DNA from: Shigella phage B2
Strand: one strand, 5' to 3'
Sequence record: OM858838
Length of the DNA: 64,000 nucleotides
Positions within the stretch are counted from its first letter, which is position 1. Every line of letters begins with the position of its first letter. Positions 52,104 through 63,891 of the stretch are shown in pieces. The position numbers were made by a program, and so were the translations under genes. The notes below the pieces were generated by a model. It had not been told where the DNA came from and searched no databases. It worked only from the letters and a program-made list of their open reading frames with translations.

Positions 52104-52126
52104 AGCACCTTCGGTGCTCTCTTTGG
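52104..52126 (+). promoter_or_regulatory. TTC-triloop hairpin (agcacc-TTC-ggtgct) followed by CTCTTTGG, upstream of tRNA cluster
   Basis: 6-bp stem, 3-nt loop; third copy of hairpin plus TTTGG architecture. Confidence 0.4.
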
Positions 52127-52213: not shown

Positions 52214-52288
52214 CAGGATATAGCTCAAGTTGGTTAGAGCACTCGGCTCATAACCGAGAGTGTCCAGGTTCGAAACCGGGTGGAACCA
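52214..52288 (+). tRNA. tRNA-like, anticodon CAT (Met or Ile2); acceptor stem does not pair by hand-folding, possible pseudo-tRNA
   Basis: canonical D-arm tagctcaagttggttagagca and anticodon arm ctcgg-CTCATAA-ccgag, T-loop TTCGAAA. Confidence 0.4.
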
Positions 52289-53688: not shown

Positions 53689-53720
53689 AAGCCTCCTTGG
53701 TCACGCAGGGAGGCTTTTTT
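53689..53720 (+). terminator. intrinsic terminator
   Basis: stem aagcctcc/ggaggctt with T-run. Confidence 0.5.
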
Positions 53721-53755: not shown

Positions 53756-54364
53756 ATGTCTGAAGTTAAAAAAGTTATTACCGTTTCTGACCGTTCTACC
53801 AAAGCTCTGGTAGTTGCTATTGCTGGCTTAGGCAAGATTGCCACTGACCTTCAAGGTCTAGGTGATATTACCGTTAAGTTGGCTGATGATATTGAATTCA
53901 AACAGTCCCAATTGGACAATCTGGATTCTGAATTCGAAAACAAATTCCGTGAATCTGCCGCACAACTGCGTCTGCGCGTACTGGAAGATGAAGAAGGTGT
54001 ACTTCTGAACATGCTCCAGCAGCGTGGTCTGGCACATGTCACAACCTTAGCACTGAACGAACTGCAAGATAAGCTGGTTGAAGCCACCTCTGATAACTCA
54101 GAAGCTCTGGCTCAAGCTGAATCCGCTGGCTTCCGTAAAGGTGCTGCACAGTTCGAACAGAAACTGAAAGATGCCGATGCAAACCATCGTATTGCAATGG
54201 CTGAACTTACCGCTAAATCCAACGCGAAAGACGATAAAATCGCTCTGCTGGAAAGCCAACTGGAAGATGCACGTAAGCAGATTACTGCTGAACGTGAAAC
54301 CCGTCTGGCAGTAGCACAGGCTGAATCTGCTCGTCAGGGTGTTGTAGTAAACACCGGTAAGTAA
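53756..54364 (+). CDS. coiled-coil protein, codon-optimised (highly expressed)
   Basis: GAAGGA SD; Ala/Glu/Leu-rich heptad-like sequence; host-optimal codons. Confidence 0.7.
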   Translation: MSEVKKVITVSDRSTKALVVAIAGLGKIATDLQGLGDITVKLADDIEFKQSQLDNLDSEFENKFRESAAQLRLRVLEDEEGVLLNMLQQRGLAHVTTLALNELQDKLVEATSDNSEALAQAESAGFRKGAAQFEQKLKDADANHRIAMAELTAKSNAKDDKIALLESQLEDARKQITAERETRLAVAQAESARQGVVVNTGK

Positions 54365-54992
54365 TAAACTCAGATTGTCGTTTTACTACGACGATTGGGA
54401 TAGCAAGCTGGCTCTGCTTAAACCAGCGCATAGTAATGAGAGCATTTGCAGGGGCGATGGATTGATGTTATTTAACCATGCGTGTAAGTGTTCTCTTTAC
54501 TATGCTGCCATAGTAACCCGAAGATTGCTTTCCTTAGAGGAAGCAGAGTTTAAACAGGTATATCCTGTCCTGTATTGAAGGTGTAACAACTGAATATACC
54601 AGAGTACTAGAACTCTGTTACCGAACTCAGGGAGTTGCTGGCCTAACCAGCTTAACATCCTATCAATGAGTACACTTGATTGAGGTCAGAAGATGAAATG
54701 AAGCTTCTGTAAAATGAATCCACAGAGTGTACTCTTTGATAGTTTTCGTATGCGATTATGCGGTTTTTTAAAAACGAACCATAAAACATAAATGCAAACG
54801 ATGATGTTGTTCTGATGGCGGCTTAACAGCCTATAAATCAGTGAGGTATTCCAGTTCCTCATAACAGAATCTGGCGCACTGGCCCGGTGTGATTAATAAT
54901 GGGCAACCAATATCTCTTTAAGTGTATTGAATCAGTATATTTACAGAGATACGCGCCAAGTATATCTCACTTCCGAATACGTTGATTATTTT

Positions 54993-55019
54993 GCCCATCT
55001 CCCTTGATGGGCTTTTTTT
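54993..55019 (+). terminator. intrinsic terminator at start of early region
   Basis: stem gcccatc/gatgggc with T7 run. Confidence 0.55.
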
Positions 55020-55113
55020 ATCCCAATCCCCGCCTTACGCTTATGCGCTTCCATCGCTCACTACGTTCGCTCGGAGCGCTTCGCTTCAGGCTAGTCGTAG
55101 GAGACTCTTAAGA

Positions 55114-56376
55114 ATGTCTACCCCTTGTGAAAGATTAGGTTATAAAGAAGGAATGCAGTTCACTCTCGTCAACGATGATGTTGATGGATTGAGTGCTGGT
55201 GATACCCTCTGGCTTCATAGTGATGATGGTTCACATAATCCTGAATTCCGTGATACTGAAAAAGTAAACGATGATACTGAAACCTACTACATCGATTTAA
55301 ACTGTGTAGCTCGTTGTACCGAAGATGAAACACTCGCCTATAACCGTGGCTTAAGAGAAGGAGATATCCTTCAGATGGTTATGGATGATGATGGTGAGGA
55401 AGCCTATGAAGGCGATATCATCACATTCATCAAAGATGATGGAGATACCTGTCCTCAATTTGAAGTACAGAAGGATGGTAATAAGGCTTACCTGTACCTC
55501 TCTCATGTAGGTGGATTAGAACCTAAAGTAGGTCGTAAGGTTCGTGTAATCCATAACTGTACTGGTGGGTTCTCTTCAGGTACTGAAGGAACTATTGTTG
55601 ATATCTGTTCTGATGGGGACTATTTGATTGCAGCACGTGGAGATACCATGTATCACCATGCTGACTCCTGTATTGTCTTCGGCTATGCAGATGACGAATC
55701 CTCTGACAGTAAAGACCCTGAACCAGTAAAAGAAGATTACCCAACTAAACCTGCTTCTGAATGGAAACAAGGTGATAGAGGTATTGTTCGTGGTCAGCAA
55801 GATAATGACCCACATAACTTCCAGATTGGTGAAGAGATTACCTTTGAACGGGGAAGAGACTCAGAAAGAGGTATCTTCCGAGGTACTAAGTACACTTCTA
55901 CTCAAAACATTCAATATGATTTGATTGAAGTAGTCTCTATTGAACCGTACCCAATCACTGTTACTAAAGTATCCAAAGAGAATCCTGTAGCCTGTATCAA
56001 AGCTATACGTGCTGCTACTGGGTTAGGTTTGTATGAAGCTAAACAAGCTTATGACTTTGTTAGAGATAACGAAGAACCATACAGCTTACAGATAATCATC
56101 TCTAAAGGTGAGTTAACTCATCTCTTTACTGAAGCAGGTATCGAATACTTCTTTGATAGACAAACTGAAGTATCTGGAACCAAACCAACAGTAATCATCT
56201 GTGATGAGTTAGCTGATACTTCTAAGAAGTATAAATACTTCATTGATGGTGATTCCATTGAAGTAACATTAGTTGGATACTTCGAAGGTGAACCCATCTG
56301 TGCTTACAAAGACAGATGGGGTGATATTCAAACCTTCGTAGCTAAACAATCACTTCTGGTATCTGATGATGACTAA
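55114..56376 (+). CDS. early protein with acidic DDG-repeat N-terminal region and ribosomal protein L7/L12 C-terminal-domain-like segment
   Basis: VACIKAIRAATGLGLYEAKQAYDFV closely parallels the L7/L12 CTD core [29 protein letters not shown] SD before ATG 55114 (track ORF start 54982 rejected). Confidence 0.6.
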   Translation: MSTPCERLGYKEGMQFTLVNDDVDGLSAGDTLWLHSDDGSHNPEFRDTEKVNDDTETYYIDLNCVARCTEDETLAYNRGLREGDILQMVMDDDGEEAYEGDIITFIKDDGDTCPQFEVQKDGNKAYLYLSHVGGLEPKVGRKVRVIHNCTGGFSSGTEGTIVDICSDGDYLIAARGDTMYHHADSCIVFGYADDESSDSKDPEPVKEDYPTKPASEWKQGDRGIVRGQQDNDPHNFQIGEEITFERGRDSERGIFRGTKYTSTQNIQYDLIEVVSIEPYPITVTKVSKENPVACIKAIRAATGLGLYEAKQAYDFVRDNEEPYSLQIIISKGELTHLFTEAGIEYFFDRQTEVSGTKPTVIICDELADTSKKYKYFIDGDSIEVTLVGYFEGEPICAYKDRWGDIQTFVAKQSLLVSDDD

Positions 56377-56547: not shown

Positions 56548-56790
56548 ATGGTAAAAGACCCACTTGCTCTCTCATTAGAAAAACGTAAGCTATGGAGAAG
56601 GGCTGCTACTCGATGGTTAGAACTATTAACATCCAGAGACTTAACAGCTACTGAGATGGATTGGGTCTTAGCCAGAAGAGACTATTGCACTAGAAAGACT
56701 AAGAGAGCAGAACCTCTTATAGATTCTGGAGTAATACACGGAGCACCTAACTCATTTATCTATGATTACTTTGGCTTTCTCCGTAAATGA
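56548..56790 (+). CDS. hypothetical early protein
   Basis: 80-aa ORF. Confidence 0.45.
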   Translation: MVKDPLALSLEKRKLWRRAATRWLELLTSRDLTATEMDWVLARRDYCTRKTKRAEPLIDSGVIHGAPNSFIYDYFGFLRK

Positions 56791-57149: not shown

Positions 57150-57360
57150 CTAACTACTGTCAATATGTAATTTAATACAGTACTAACTAAGGAATACCAA
57201 TGAAGTTACATGATATCTTATTCATAGTACTAGCTATTGTACTGTTTGGATTAGCAGTATATCTAAGTAAATAATTATTATTTTTTAAAGGGTTAGAGAA
57301 TTTTTAATAATTACTTACCAATGTAGTATTACTGCACACAATCTTTTATTAATCCGAATA

Positions 57361-57371
57361 CCCCCCCCCCC
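57361..57371 (+). repeat. poly-C homopolymer tract (11 C)
   Basis: uninterrupted C11 run in an otherwise AT-rich intergenic region, 18 nt upstream of a triloop hairpin. Confidence 0.9.
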
Positions 57372-57388
57372 ATACTTCACACATCCAT

Positions 57389-57401
57389 GAGTCTTCGACT
57401 C
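57389..57401 (+). promoter_or_regulatory. TTC-triloop hairpin (gagtc-TTC-gactc), candidate vRNAP-type hairpin promoter
   Basis: 5-bp stem, 3-nt loop, followed by TAGTGGAG; upstream of gene at 57447. Confidence 0.4.
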
Positions 57402-57446
57402 TAGTGGAGCAATGGTGCTCTACTTAATCATGATTAGGAGTATGTT

Positions 57447-58201: not shown

Positions 58202-58231
58202 ACTTACTTCGTAAGTATCTCACTTCGTGAG
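58202..58231 (+). promoter_or_regulatory. tandem pair of TTC-triloop hairpins (acttac-TTC-gtaagt and ctcac-TTC-gtgag)
   Basis: two perfect hairpins 2 nt apart immediately upstream of ORF at 58234. Confidence 0.4.
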
Positions 58232-58233
58232 TA

Positions 58234-58572
58234 ATGGGTAGAGCAAAAGAGAGAATTCACATGGCTATCATCCATTCAATCATTGGTTCTAATTCAGAAC
58301 CATCAACAGTAGTAGTCAACAAGTATAAGGAACCATACGATGTATATATCGGTAGAGGTAGTCTATGGGGAAATCCTTATACAGTTCAAGAACATGGCAG
58401 AGAACTATGCATTGCAATGTATGAGCAATACATACGTGCAAGACTACATCAAGAACCTGATTTATATCTTCAATTACTTGAGCTTAAAGGTAAGAAGCTA
58501 GGCTGCTTCTGTAAACCTAAACCATGTCATGGTGATGTATTAGTTAGACTCATCCAAGAGTACTCAAACTAA
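58234..58572 (+). CDS. hypothetical early protein (start may be ATG 58261)
   Basis: 112-aa ORF; Cys/His-containing C-terminal half. Confidence 0.5.
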   Translation: MGRAKERIHMAIIHSIIGSNSEPSTVVVNKYKEPYDVYIGRGSLWGNPYTVQEHGRELCIAMYEQYIRARLHQEPDLYLQLLELKGKKLGCFCKPKPCHGDVLVRLIQEYSN

Positions 58573-59483: not shown

Positions 59484-59551
59484 CACCGTCTTCGACGGTG
59501 GTGGAGTTCTCCCTTAAGTTCTCCTTCTCCTGTAAGAGCGACTTCGTCGCT
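59484..59551 (+). promoter_or_regulatory. tandem pair of TTC-triloop hairpins (caccgtc-TTC-gacggtg at 59484-59500; agcgac-TTC-gtcgct at 59537-59551), each followed by GTGGA
   Basis: 7-bp and 6-bp perfect stems with 3-nt loops, 36 nt apart, upstream of codon-optimised gene at 59593. Confidence 0.45.
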
Positions 59552-62015: not shown

Positions 62016-62028
62016 CAGCCTTCGGCTG
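62016..62028 (+). promoter_or_regulatory. TTC-triloop hairpin (cagcc-TTC-ggctg), candidate hairpin promoter
   Basis: 5-bp stem, 3-nt loop, followed by TTCTGGTGAA; upstream of macro-like gene. Confidence 0.4.
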
Positions 62029-62773: not shown

Positions 62774-62996
62774 ATTAATTACCATTTTAAATGGAATATA
62801 TAATTTACCTGAACGCAAAGACTACGCTCCAAAAGAGTACATATGTGATTTAATCATATGTCCTGATGTACTTTGCAGTAATTGTCCAATGGGCAACCCA
62901 CATTATTTAAATCCTGACAAAGAATTATTTGTCACTCAAATCCATAAAACATTGGAAGTCATGAACCATGAAACAAGAAACTCAACTCCTGATTGA
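62766..62996 (+). CDS. Cys-motif mini-protein family member 8
   Basis: MDKLITILNGIY…C…C.NC. Confidence 0.5.
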   Translation: MDKLITILNGIYNLPERKDYAPKEYICDLIICPDVLCSNCPMGNPHYLNPDKELFVTQIHKTLEVMNHETRNSTPD

Positions 62997-63891
62997 ATCT
63001 ATGTTCAACCGTCACCAATCTCGTGACCTAATTAGAAATGAAATTAGAACTTCACCTGAAGTTATGGAGTTAGTTAGTGCTGCTGTAGATAAAGCACTGG
63101 AATGGGTAGAAGGTGATTACTTTGAAAGTAAGAACAAACGTCTGGCATTATTGGATACCAATATCCTAGAAGACTTCTACATTGATGTTGCTGGTTCATT
63201 GGCTCAATTTGGTAAGGCTAAGTATACCCAGATAGTAGGTATGGTATCTGGAATGATTTCTACTATGCCTCAGAAAGAGGCTATAAGGACTGCTGGAGAG
63301 CTTATCTCATTAGCAGCTATGGTAGACCTCATTGACCTGATTCCAGCCTCTATGAGCGTTACAGGCTCTATGGAACTGGTATCCCGTATACAGCTTGAAC
63401 CAAAGACATTGGAACTGATTAACCAGTATCAATATCTGCCTCCTATGCTTGTTCCCCCTGAACCAGTTAAATCAAATACTGGTAGTGGGTATCTGTCCAT
63501 CAAATGGGATTCCCTGATTCTGAAGAAGAATCATCATGAGTTTGATATCTGTTTGGATAATATCAACAGATTTAACTCAGTAGCTTTCTCTCTGGATGAC
63601 CGTGTAATCCGTAATATTAGGGATAACCGTAAACATCTGGATAGTGCTAAAGCTGATGAATCTGCTGATGAGTACAAAGCACGAGTTGATTCATTTCTGA
63701 AAATGGAAAAGGAATCTATGCGTGTATTTGCAATGCTCATCAATGAAGGGAACAGATTCTATCTGACTCACAAGTATGACAAACGAGGTCGTACTTACTG
63801 TCAGGGCTATCATGTCTCCTACCAAGGGAATACCTATCGTAAAGCTATTCTTGAATTAGCTGATAAAGAAATCGTACCCATTGAGGAATAA
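62968..63891 (+). CDS. T7-like RNA polymerase, N-terminal subunit of a split (two-gene) phage RNAP (N4 RNAP II-like)
   Basis: C-terminal YDKRGRTYCQGYHVSYQGN matches the T7 RNAP D.RGR.Y…QGND region; gene continues as a separate ORF. Confidence 0.65.
   Translation: MKQETQLLIESMFNRHQSRDLIRNEIRTSPEVMELVSAAVDKALEWVEGDYFESKNKRLALLDTNILEDFYIDVAGSLAQFGKAKYTQIVGMVSGMISTMPQKEAIRTAGELISLAAMVDLIDLIPASMSVTGSMELVSRIQLEPKTLELINQYQYLPPMLVPPEPVKSNTGSGYLSIKWDSLILKKNHHEFDICLDNINRFNSVAFSLDDRVIRNIRDNRKHLDSAKADESADEYKARVDSFLKMEKESMRVFAMLINEGNRFYLTHKYDKRGRTYCQGYHVSYQGNTYRKAILELADKEIVPIEE

Follow-up and report, generated by a model that had tools for sequence, protein, structure and literature searches.

A predicted bL12 C-terminal domain homolog carried as an optional cassette in the β-barrel protein gp56 of Shigella phage B2

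We analysed a 64,000-nucleotide (nt) stretch of DNA from Shigella phage B2 (sequence record OM858838; hereafter the window), in which the open reading frame (ORF) at 55114-56376 (+) encodes a 420-amino-acid (aa) protein 100% identical to 'hypothetical protein B2_gp56' (gp56). Profile searches and structure models indicate that gp56 residues 279-347 are truly homologous to the C-terminal domain (CTD) in the bacterial ribosomal protein bL12 (L7/L12) and share its fold. As the best explanation, to which we give a probability of about 0.5, gp56 would be an accessory barrel protein with a soluble, off-stalk factor-binding head. Mizuno et al. (2019, Nat Commun 10:752) had already reported the domain assignment, its uneven occurrence among relatives and an initial test on ribosomes, so the finding is already known and ours is a rediscovery. 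We add the five-barrel architecture, the 80-codon cassette with its junction repeat, a second insertion site in the TR2-like proteins P0045/P0046, dN/dS (nonsynonymous to synonymous substitution) ratios and the location near the right genome end. We also add the missing N-terminal domain as an argument against stalk incorporation, and the observation that the published ribosome evidence is a single peptide.

Homology to bL12 was first of all apparent in profile searches. The Pfam profile PF00542 (Ribosomal_L12) matched gp56 with E = 2.9e-5 and 24.7 bits, slightly short of its gathering score (25.9), over profile positions 5-34 of 67 only; precomputed matches to PF00542 were present in five close relatives of gp56. 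A phmmer search of the Protein Data Bank (PDB) with gp56 found the E. coli L7/L12 CTD at E = 2e-3. With a profile made from 16 diverse modules of the family, 1ctf was matched at E = 2.1e-9; the alignment runs through positions 13-73 of the profile and residues 11-69 of the chain, that is, over the whole CTD, and all 15 best matches in the PDB were bL12. Alignment of the module to E. coli RplL with hhalign gave a probability of 96.9% (E = 1.4e-10), the aligned RplL residues being 59-117 only. Chance similarity to the L7/L12 CTD was considered and is ruled out by these E-values.

Results of the structural comparison pointed the same way. A module-only AlphaFold model (predicted local distance difference test score, pLDDT, 88; predicted template modelling score, pTM, 0.77) was compared with the PDB by Foldseek, and the top eight matches were L7/L12 CTDs, 1ctf among them with a template modelling (TM) score of 0.71, a root-mean-square deviation of 2.9 Å and 36% identity. 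The module shares 36% identity with the E. coli CTD over the whole domain and 15/20 identical residues in the α4-α5 core, while its helix α6 is shorter and five residues are inserted after α5. An L7/L12 CTD-like module, recognizable with L12 profiles and by structural comparison, had been proposed from the letters alone (hereafter the sequence-only reading), and that proposal is borne out by the searches and the model. The peptide quoted for it, VACIKAIRAATGLGLYEAKQAYDFV...EAGIEY, occupies residues 292-345 (nt 55987-56148), close to the 55975-56170 given at the time.

In the full-length AlphaFold model (44 homologs in the alignment, mean pLDDT 83, pTM 0.48) gp56 is predicted to consist of five small SH3-like β-barrels and one β-α-α-β-α-β unit at residues 279-347. 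The predicted parts are the following:

55114-55314 (+), aa 1-67: β-barrel D1, SH3-like, with the motif LH.DDGS..PEF (AlphaFold, Foldseek, repeat test)
55333-55491 (+), aa 74-126: β-barrel D2, tandem duplicate of D1 (AlphaFold, hhalign)
55519-55683 (+), aa 136-190: β-barrel D3 (AlphaFold)
55756-55935 (+), aa 215-274: β-barrel D4, preceded by a disordered acidic linker at aa 196-207 (AlphaFold)
55948-56154 (+), aa 279-347: bL12 CTD module, with β1 279-285, α4 291-302, α5 306-319, β2 323-327, α6 331-341 and β3 344-347
55984-56070 (+), aa 291-319: helices α4-α5, counterpart of the bL12 factor-binding surface
56227-56364 (+), aa 372-417: β-barrel D5, the most conserved barrel, preceded by a disordered linker at aa 349-370

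Barrels D1 and D2 align with each other at an hhalign probability of 98.4% (E = 7.5e-15), which indicates a tandem duplication with a common DDG...P.F motif. DDG/DGD motifs are located at residues 37, 91, 92, 108, 109, 167 and 378; such acidic motifs had already been noticed in the sequence-only reading, and they are repeated because both copies of the duplicated barrel carry the motif. The same reading had placed the module near the C-terminus: its coordinates hold, but the position does not, as the fifth barrel (372-417) follows.

Foldseek comparison of the full-length model returned multi-KOW, SH3-like and Tudor arrays on top (e.g., kin17, 2ckk; Spt5 KOW6-7, 5ohq), with no L12 structure among the top 50 matches. 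The module-only model was built because the barrel arrays dominated this search. Two-barrel units of D1-D5 resemble tandem SH3-like/KOW-like arrays, such as the kin17 C-terminal domain, Spt5 KOW6-7, Tudor and Mib/HERC2 repeats, with TM scores of 0.65-0.71. No KOW, SH3 or Tudor profile in Pfam matched the barrels at E ≤ 10 and, unlike nucleic-acid-binding KOW domains, they are strongly acidic (isoelectric point, pI, 4-5.8).

The residues of E. coli L12 that bind translation factors include V66, I69, K70 and R73; the E. coli numbering was compared against the RplL sequence. At eight positions, V66, I69, K70, R73, G79, L80, E82 and K84 in E. coli, the residues of gp56 (V292, I295, K296, R299, G305, L306, E308 and K310) are identical in 8/8 cases. 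The 16 diverse modules show no variation at V292, I295, A297, I298, G305, L306 and K310, and hardly any at K296; these align with E. coli V66, I69, A71, V72, G79, L80, K84 and K70, respectively. In bL12, IF2, EF-Tu, EF-G and RF3 are bound through a conserved positively charged site on helices 4-5 (PMC6753160).

We next consider selection on this surface. Nei-Gojobori counts were pooled over seven orthologs, so that the pairs are non-independent and the dN/dS values indicative: 0.12 for the module, 0.07 for helices 4-5, 0.23 for the whole gene and 0.80 for the linker. Helices α4-α5 are the most constrained part of the gp56 gene. The module is under purifying selection and, judging from dN/dS and the invariant residues, it appears functional where present. 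Since it is predicted to be a true CTD homolog that keeps the helix 4-5 surface, engagement of translational GTPases by the module is a reasonable expectation from sequence and model, and was also proposed by Mizuno et al. (2019).

These authors listed the FSL SP-058 and the FSL SP-076 phage proteins as bL12-domain proteins, reported that the domains keep the residues for contacts with uL11, EF-G and EF-Tu, and suggested an interface for translation factors. Both are gp56 orthologs (90-91% identity over the full length) with like architecture, module position and genomic position; gp56 is set apart from them by no more than its host, Shigella, and a sequence divergence of about 10%. In GenBank, both are annotated with 'COG0222 Ribosomal protein L7/L12', and viral bL12-CTD proteins are annotated as such in UniProt and BFVD. 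Accordingly, gp56 fits the class described in 2019, in which a phage bL12 CTD is variably placed within a larger polypeptide and homologs without the domain exist. Our literature search found no later functional work on the gp56 family.

The module behaves as an optional cassette. In the family alignment, homologs of about 340 aa, spread over several sublineages, lack exactly the module (P0010, P0019, Pollock, P0038 and P0044), the Pollock homolog having been reported as lacking the L12 domain by Mizuno et al. (2019). P0010 is otherwise 90% identical to B2 gp56, and the P0018 lineage has its counterpart without the module in P0019. In sequenced phages the gp56 family comprises 20 records only, from Ithacavirus, the Pylas/KpCHEMY26/MY01 group, Pollock, TR2 and, as a partial N-terminal match, Nitrincola phage 1M3-16; the module is present in 14 of the 20. 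DNA comparison with a module-less contig placed the boundaries of the cassette at two copies of a short direct repeat:

55926-55932 (+): direct repeat TGAAGTA, left copy, cassette boundary
56166-56172 (+): direct repeat TGAAGTA, right copy, cassette boundary

Module-less relatives lack precisely the 240 nt (80 codons) that lie between these repeats, and the junctions are compatible with microhomology-mediated deletion or insertion. A different placement was found in P0045/P0046 (about 500 aa; Salmonella phage TR2-like, Salmonella assemblies), which have an extra barrel and carry an L12-like unit, VVPIIKAIRRLTGWGLKDSKD, with a Pfam match at E = 3e-4. As this unit sits between D3 and D4, and not between D4 and D5, the comparison of sequences indicates that the module moved or was acquired twice.

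Taken together, gp56 may be a non-essential accessory protein of one N4-like phage lineage, in which five acidic SH3-like barrels would serve as a scaffold and an 80-codon cassette with a complete bL12 CTD would have been spliced between barrels 4 and 5. The module would act away from the stalk: as an unattached duplicate of its 'head', it would bind host EF-Tu, EF-G, IF2 and RF3 via helices 4-5. The bound GTPases could then be tethered to a partner of the barrels, or the module could compete with the stalk for them, so that host translation would be tuned during infection. If such off-ribosome GTPase binding is true, gp56 would represent a compact natural phage tool that steers the supply of factors to host ribosomes. 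A 'soluble factor-binding head' is also a sharper hypothesis than a 'viral ribosomal protein', and natural pairs with and without the module (B2 vs. the P0010 contig, P0018 vs. P0019) provide a ready genetic comparison.

Several points weigh against this explanation. The module is dispensable within the gp56 family. Of the five positive charges at the bL12 site, gp56 keeps only three (K65 has become P, and K81 Y), and the counterpart of R73 is N or H in some relatives. GTPase binding by the module, and its consequence, are what we infer rather than observe, and the orientation of the domains relative to one another is uncertain in the full-length model at a pTM of 0.48. The L12-CTD fold may also be used outside translation, since many non-ribosomal multi-repeat bacterial proteins carry L12-CTD units. 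Lastly, the ribosome co-sedimentation reported by Mizuno et al. (2019), if real, argues for a ribosome-bound role; the evidence for it is one peptide among contaminants.

The use of the fold outside translation leads to the alternative that survives best, namely that it serves protein-protein contacts or dimerisation in a generic way, unconnected with translation factors. We regard this as unlikely, albeit deserving of serious attention. In a search of a representative library, the module matched 120 clusters at E < 1e-3, mostly non-bL12 proteins of 150-950 aa in which the α4-α5 unit is repeated 2-7 times, and its motif recurs in no fewer than four further PHROG families of unknown function; the dispensability of the module fits here as well. 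The multi-repeat bacterial proteins (e.g., P0047, P0048 and P0056; DUF6793-associated) share the α4-α5 unit with gp56 and are found outside the ribosome, but they carry 2-7 tandem copies, often together with zinc-ribbon or membrane segments, and have no β-barrel scaffold. The library search is uninformative on the origin of the module, because the summed scores of multi-repeat proteins outrank single-copy bL12. A generic function is, however, difficult to reconcile with the identity of the invariant residues, which are those of the factor-binding helices of bL12, and with the 36% identity to the host-type E. coli CTD (15/20 in the α4-α5 core). The neighbourhood of the gene, with transfer RNA (tRNA) genes and a transfer-messenger RNA (tmRNA)-like RNA, is likewise related to translation.

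That gp56 is instead a viral ribosomal protein, which in host 70S ribosomes replaces or supplements bL12 in the stalk, is the reading of Mizuno et al. (2019), and we find it improbable. These authors reported the FSL SP-076 protein as 'stably incorporated' in 70S ribosomes after the ortholog had been seen by mass spectrometry in high-salt 70S preparations, and the module does possess the residues for uL11 and factor contacts. In Supplementary Data 3 of that study, though, the detection comes down to a single peptide with a single spectrum (score 14.17), in a list that also names AraB, ChaA, IntE, RNase R and HslU, and the Strep-tagged SP-076 protein did not co-purify ribosomes.

The architecture of gp56 also speaks against a place in the stalk. 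The N-terminal domain of bL12 is its sole ribosome anchor, via uL10 (PMC3299993, PMC12548414), and the protein makes no contact with ribosomal RNA (PMC3299993). In gp56 this domain and the hinge are absent: PF00542 was the only Pfam match even at E ≤ 10, and the residues preceding the module are predicted by AlphaFold to fold as β-barrels. The NCBIfam L12 equivalog model TIGR00855 scored gp56 at 19 bits, below its cut-off of 84.4, and at 47 kDa the protein has five extra domains. Relative to bacterial bL12 (PF00542 + PF16320; TIGR00855), gp56 has a homologous CTD of like fold with the helix 4-5 residues kept, but it lacks both the hinge and the N-terminal domain for dimerisation and uL10 binding; its module lies inside a 420-aa multi-domain protein, and its gene is not in an rplJ-rplL context. 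As the N-terminal domain is the sole attachment of bL12 and is absent from gp56, we conclude that gp56 is probably not a canonical stalk subunit and that stalk incorporation is unlikely. The idea in the sequence-only reading that the protein docks onto ribosomes is, for a stalk protein, unlikely on the same ground. With the anchor absent and the mass-spectrometry evidence very thin, 'viral ribosomal protein' is probably the wrong frame.

Still less probable is that the module serves as a decoy for an agent that targets the stalk head, such as a toxin or a defence nuclease (e.g., the ribosome-dependent Cami1), and thereby protects translation. The L12 CTD in the Cami1-ribosome structure 8phj was among the fold matches, which is circumstantial, and patchy presence and absence in close relatives would fit a host-specific arms-race gene. 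On the other hand, gp56 gave no match in defence/anti-defence libraries (PADLOC), and there is no experimental or contextual link. A ClpS-like adaptor of the same fold superfamily, acting on N-degrons or docking to ClpA, can hardly be credited and was rejected on sequence grounds: viral ClpS-like proteins exist and ClpS structures appear from Foldseek rank 9 on (TM about 0.5), but their identity to the module is 4-15%, and the significant matches in the Pfam, NCBIfam and PDB sequence searches were all bL12 with no ClpS.

The bL12 CTD is also present in stand-alone phage proteins, namely those of Ralstonia phages RSB3 and RSJ5, roseophage DSS3P2, Dinoroseobacter phage DFL12phi1 and crAss-like phages; several of these phages are likewise N4-like. 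Their proteins differ from gp56 in being 80-130 aa long and almost domain only, often near host bL12, and encoded in other genomic contexts. The closeness to host bL12 and the other contexts suggest that these proteins and the gp56 module are independent acquisitions.

The gp56 protein is acidic (pI 4.4), has a mass of 47 kDa and belongs to PHROG 26483, a family of unknown function; it is not mentioned in the paper describing phage B2. The 4 kb around the gene match Ithacavirus (Schitoviridae), i.e., N4-like Salmonella phages, at 92-94% identity. All gp56 homologs in the alignment begin with MSTPCE, showing that the N-terminus is conserved. The signals upstream of the gene are:

54993-55012 (+): intrinsic terminator GCCCATC...GATGGGC followed by T7, closing the upstream transcription unit
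55099-55103 (+): Shine-Dalgarno sequence AGGAG, 10 nt 5′ of the gp56 ATG

A leader of about 100 nt separates the terminator from gp56, whose transcription start is predicted to fall in 55013-55098, and a scan for σ70 promoters showed no enrichment vs. shuffled sequences.

With respect to the timing of expression, the gene had been described as encoding an early protein in the sequence-only reading, which our results do not support. Pollock has annotated termini, and its ortholog, gp84, occupies positions 65978-67006 of 68365 bp, with the tRNA cluster on one side and the right terminal repeat on the other; it follows the terminase, a gp69-like gene and the tRNAs. The N4-like early block of Pollock (gp2-like, gp6-like, DUF4326) is placed after the left repeat, and N4 itself has a small rightward gene cluster (gp70-72) at its right end. 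Promoters of the virion RNA polymerase (vRNAP) occur only at the left end, the first part of the genome to enter the cell (review, PMC4496689); such a hairpin promoter has a stem of 5-7 bp and a 3-nt loop T-N-C on the coding strand (PMC4496689). The window contains the following hairpins of this kind:

57389-57401, 59484-59500 and 59537-59551: perfect TTC-loop hairpins of 5-7 bp, followed by (T)GGTGGA(G)
58219-58231, 62016-62028 and 52104-52118: further perfect TTC-loop hairpins, the one at 52104 just 5′ of tRNA-Asp

All are similar to P1, an early vRNAP promoter of N4 (GTTGC-TTC-GCAAC), and, judged by sequence, this phage probably uses them as its early promoters. The canonical TTC-loop N4-type promoters begin at 57389, 3′ of gp56; on its 5′ side we found only an imperfect CTT-loop hairpin, GAGCG-CTT-CGCTT, which breaks the vRNAP loop rule. 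Located 3′ of gp56 on the same strand are homologs of N4 gp12 (58234-58572; E = 3e-18) and of RNAP1 gp15 (62968-63891; E = 5e-48).

A run of 11 C at 57361-57371 resembles the C-tract near the left end of N4, and the GenBank records of FSL SP-058, S5, UTK0001 and UTK0002 end at about 57360-57422 of the window. The region 57360-57422 is probably a physical genome end or the start of a terminal repeat; from the record ends and the C run, gp56 would lie about 1 kb from the right genome end. Two genes 3′ of gp56, at 56548-56790 (+), we observed a PerC-family transcriptional activator of 80 aa (Pfam E = 1e-11), annotated as 'transcriptional activator' in relatives. It was considered as an equivalent of N4 gp2 and rejected, as it shows no similarity to gp2 and is PerC-like instead; it therefore does not mark the early region. 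We conclude that gp56 belongs to a right-end cluster with tRNA genes, the tmRNA-like RNA and the PerC-like activator, not to an N4-type early block, and is probably not an early gene.

The tmRNA-like RNA is an unannotated element at 54722-54925 (+), within a 750-nt non-coding stretch 5′ of gp56. Its predicted features are:

54794 (+): resume codon GCA
54824-54826 (+): stop codon TAA
54842-54861/54871-54874 (+): pseudoknot stems
54877-54889/54901-54904 (+): pseudoknot stems

Rfam models for permuted tmRNA and alpha-tmRNA matched at 54725-54880 below threshold, with 29.2 and 23.7 bits (gathering scores 47 and 50) and E-values of 2.8e-4 and 3e-5 in a 401-nt search, and were aligned on the tag template. 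The tag frame GCA AAC GAT GAT GTT GTT CTG ATG GCG GCT TAA reads ANDDVVLMAA followed by a stop. ARAGORN called no tmRNA in the window; it called a permuted tmRNA with the tag ANDNVFLAVA in Mijalis, and made calls in 2/121 loci overall. A canonical tRNA-like domain was not found, the search for a T-arm and acceptor stem being confounded by neighbouring tRNA genes.

Comparative data argue for a conserved RNA. The core (about 54722-54905) has blastn matches at 70-95% nucleotide identity in 677 phage records spanning unrelated groups (P22-like HK620, FelixO1-like, Ackermannviridae, KP34-like and N4-like) and occurs in 137 of 5426 E. coli genomes; it hardly ever carries an annotation. Its place in HK620 is between pR'/qut and the late terminator, in Mijalis inside the tRNA cluster. 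Among tag frames from IMG/VR, 119/120 are exactly 10 codons long, and there are 20 different SsrA-like peptides of the form AN(D/E)xxx..(A/V)A ending in a stop; the copies vary synonymously, and AUG is not required. A stop-codon hairpin and two pseudoknots 3′ of the tag are supported by covariation, with 89.8% of cells paired and double changes in 16/20 pairs, and the covariation score of 0.408 (at most 0.107 in slid controls) was reached by 0/500 shuffles. A PK1-like pseudoknot and a closing helix were also tested for, in regions where the alignment is gappy.

Phage tmRNAs are known from ARAGORN surveys, in 2.3% of genomes (PMC9004378), and we found no description of this enterobacterial tmRNA-like family in the literature. 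The RNA may be more novel than the gp56 finding and may deserve an investigation of its own. In 4/4 genomes checked it was placed 314-322 nt 5′ of the gp56-family gene; because two of these four genomes have no L12 module, the RNA is syntenic with the barrel protein rather than with the cassette in particular. A functional link between the RNA and gp56 is speculative. Only a slim chance can be given to the broader proposal that gp56 and its neighbours form a phage-run translation and ribosome-rescue module that would redirect or disable trans-translation and tagging (ANDDVVLMAA), or to its variant in which a decoy would shield the host stalk.

Further observations were made in the tRNA region. 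Between the tRNA cluster and the tmRNA-like RNA lies a 202-aa ORF, 53756-54364 (+), of PHROG 9325 (a family of unknown function) and with no Pfam match, which is preceded by a strong terminator-like hairpin at 53689-53716. An extra tRNA-like sequence at 52216-52288 (+), between tRNA-Asp and tRNA-Ile, scored 37.7 bits in Rfam (gathering score 29) and is missed by ARAGORN. In RefSeq record NC_021782 (FSL SP-076), the annotated tRNA coordinates are displaced by 1024-1050 nt from the real genes. This shift increases by roughly 1 for every 60 nt, as would happen if line breaks were included in the count, and the displaced tRNAs consequently seem to overlap the coding sequence SP076_00325.

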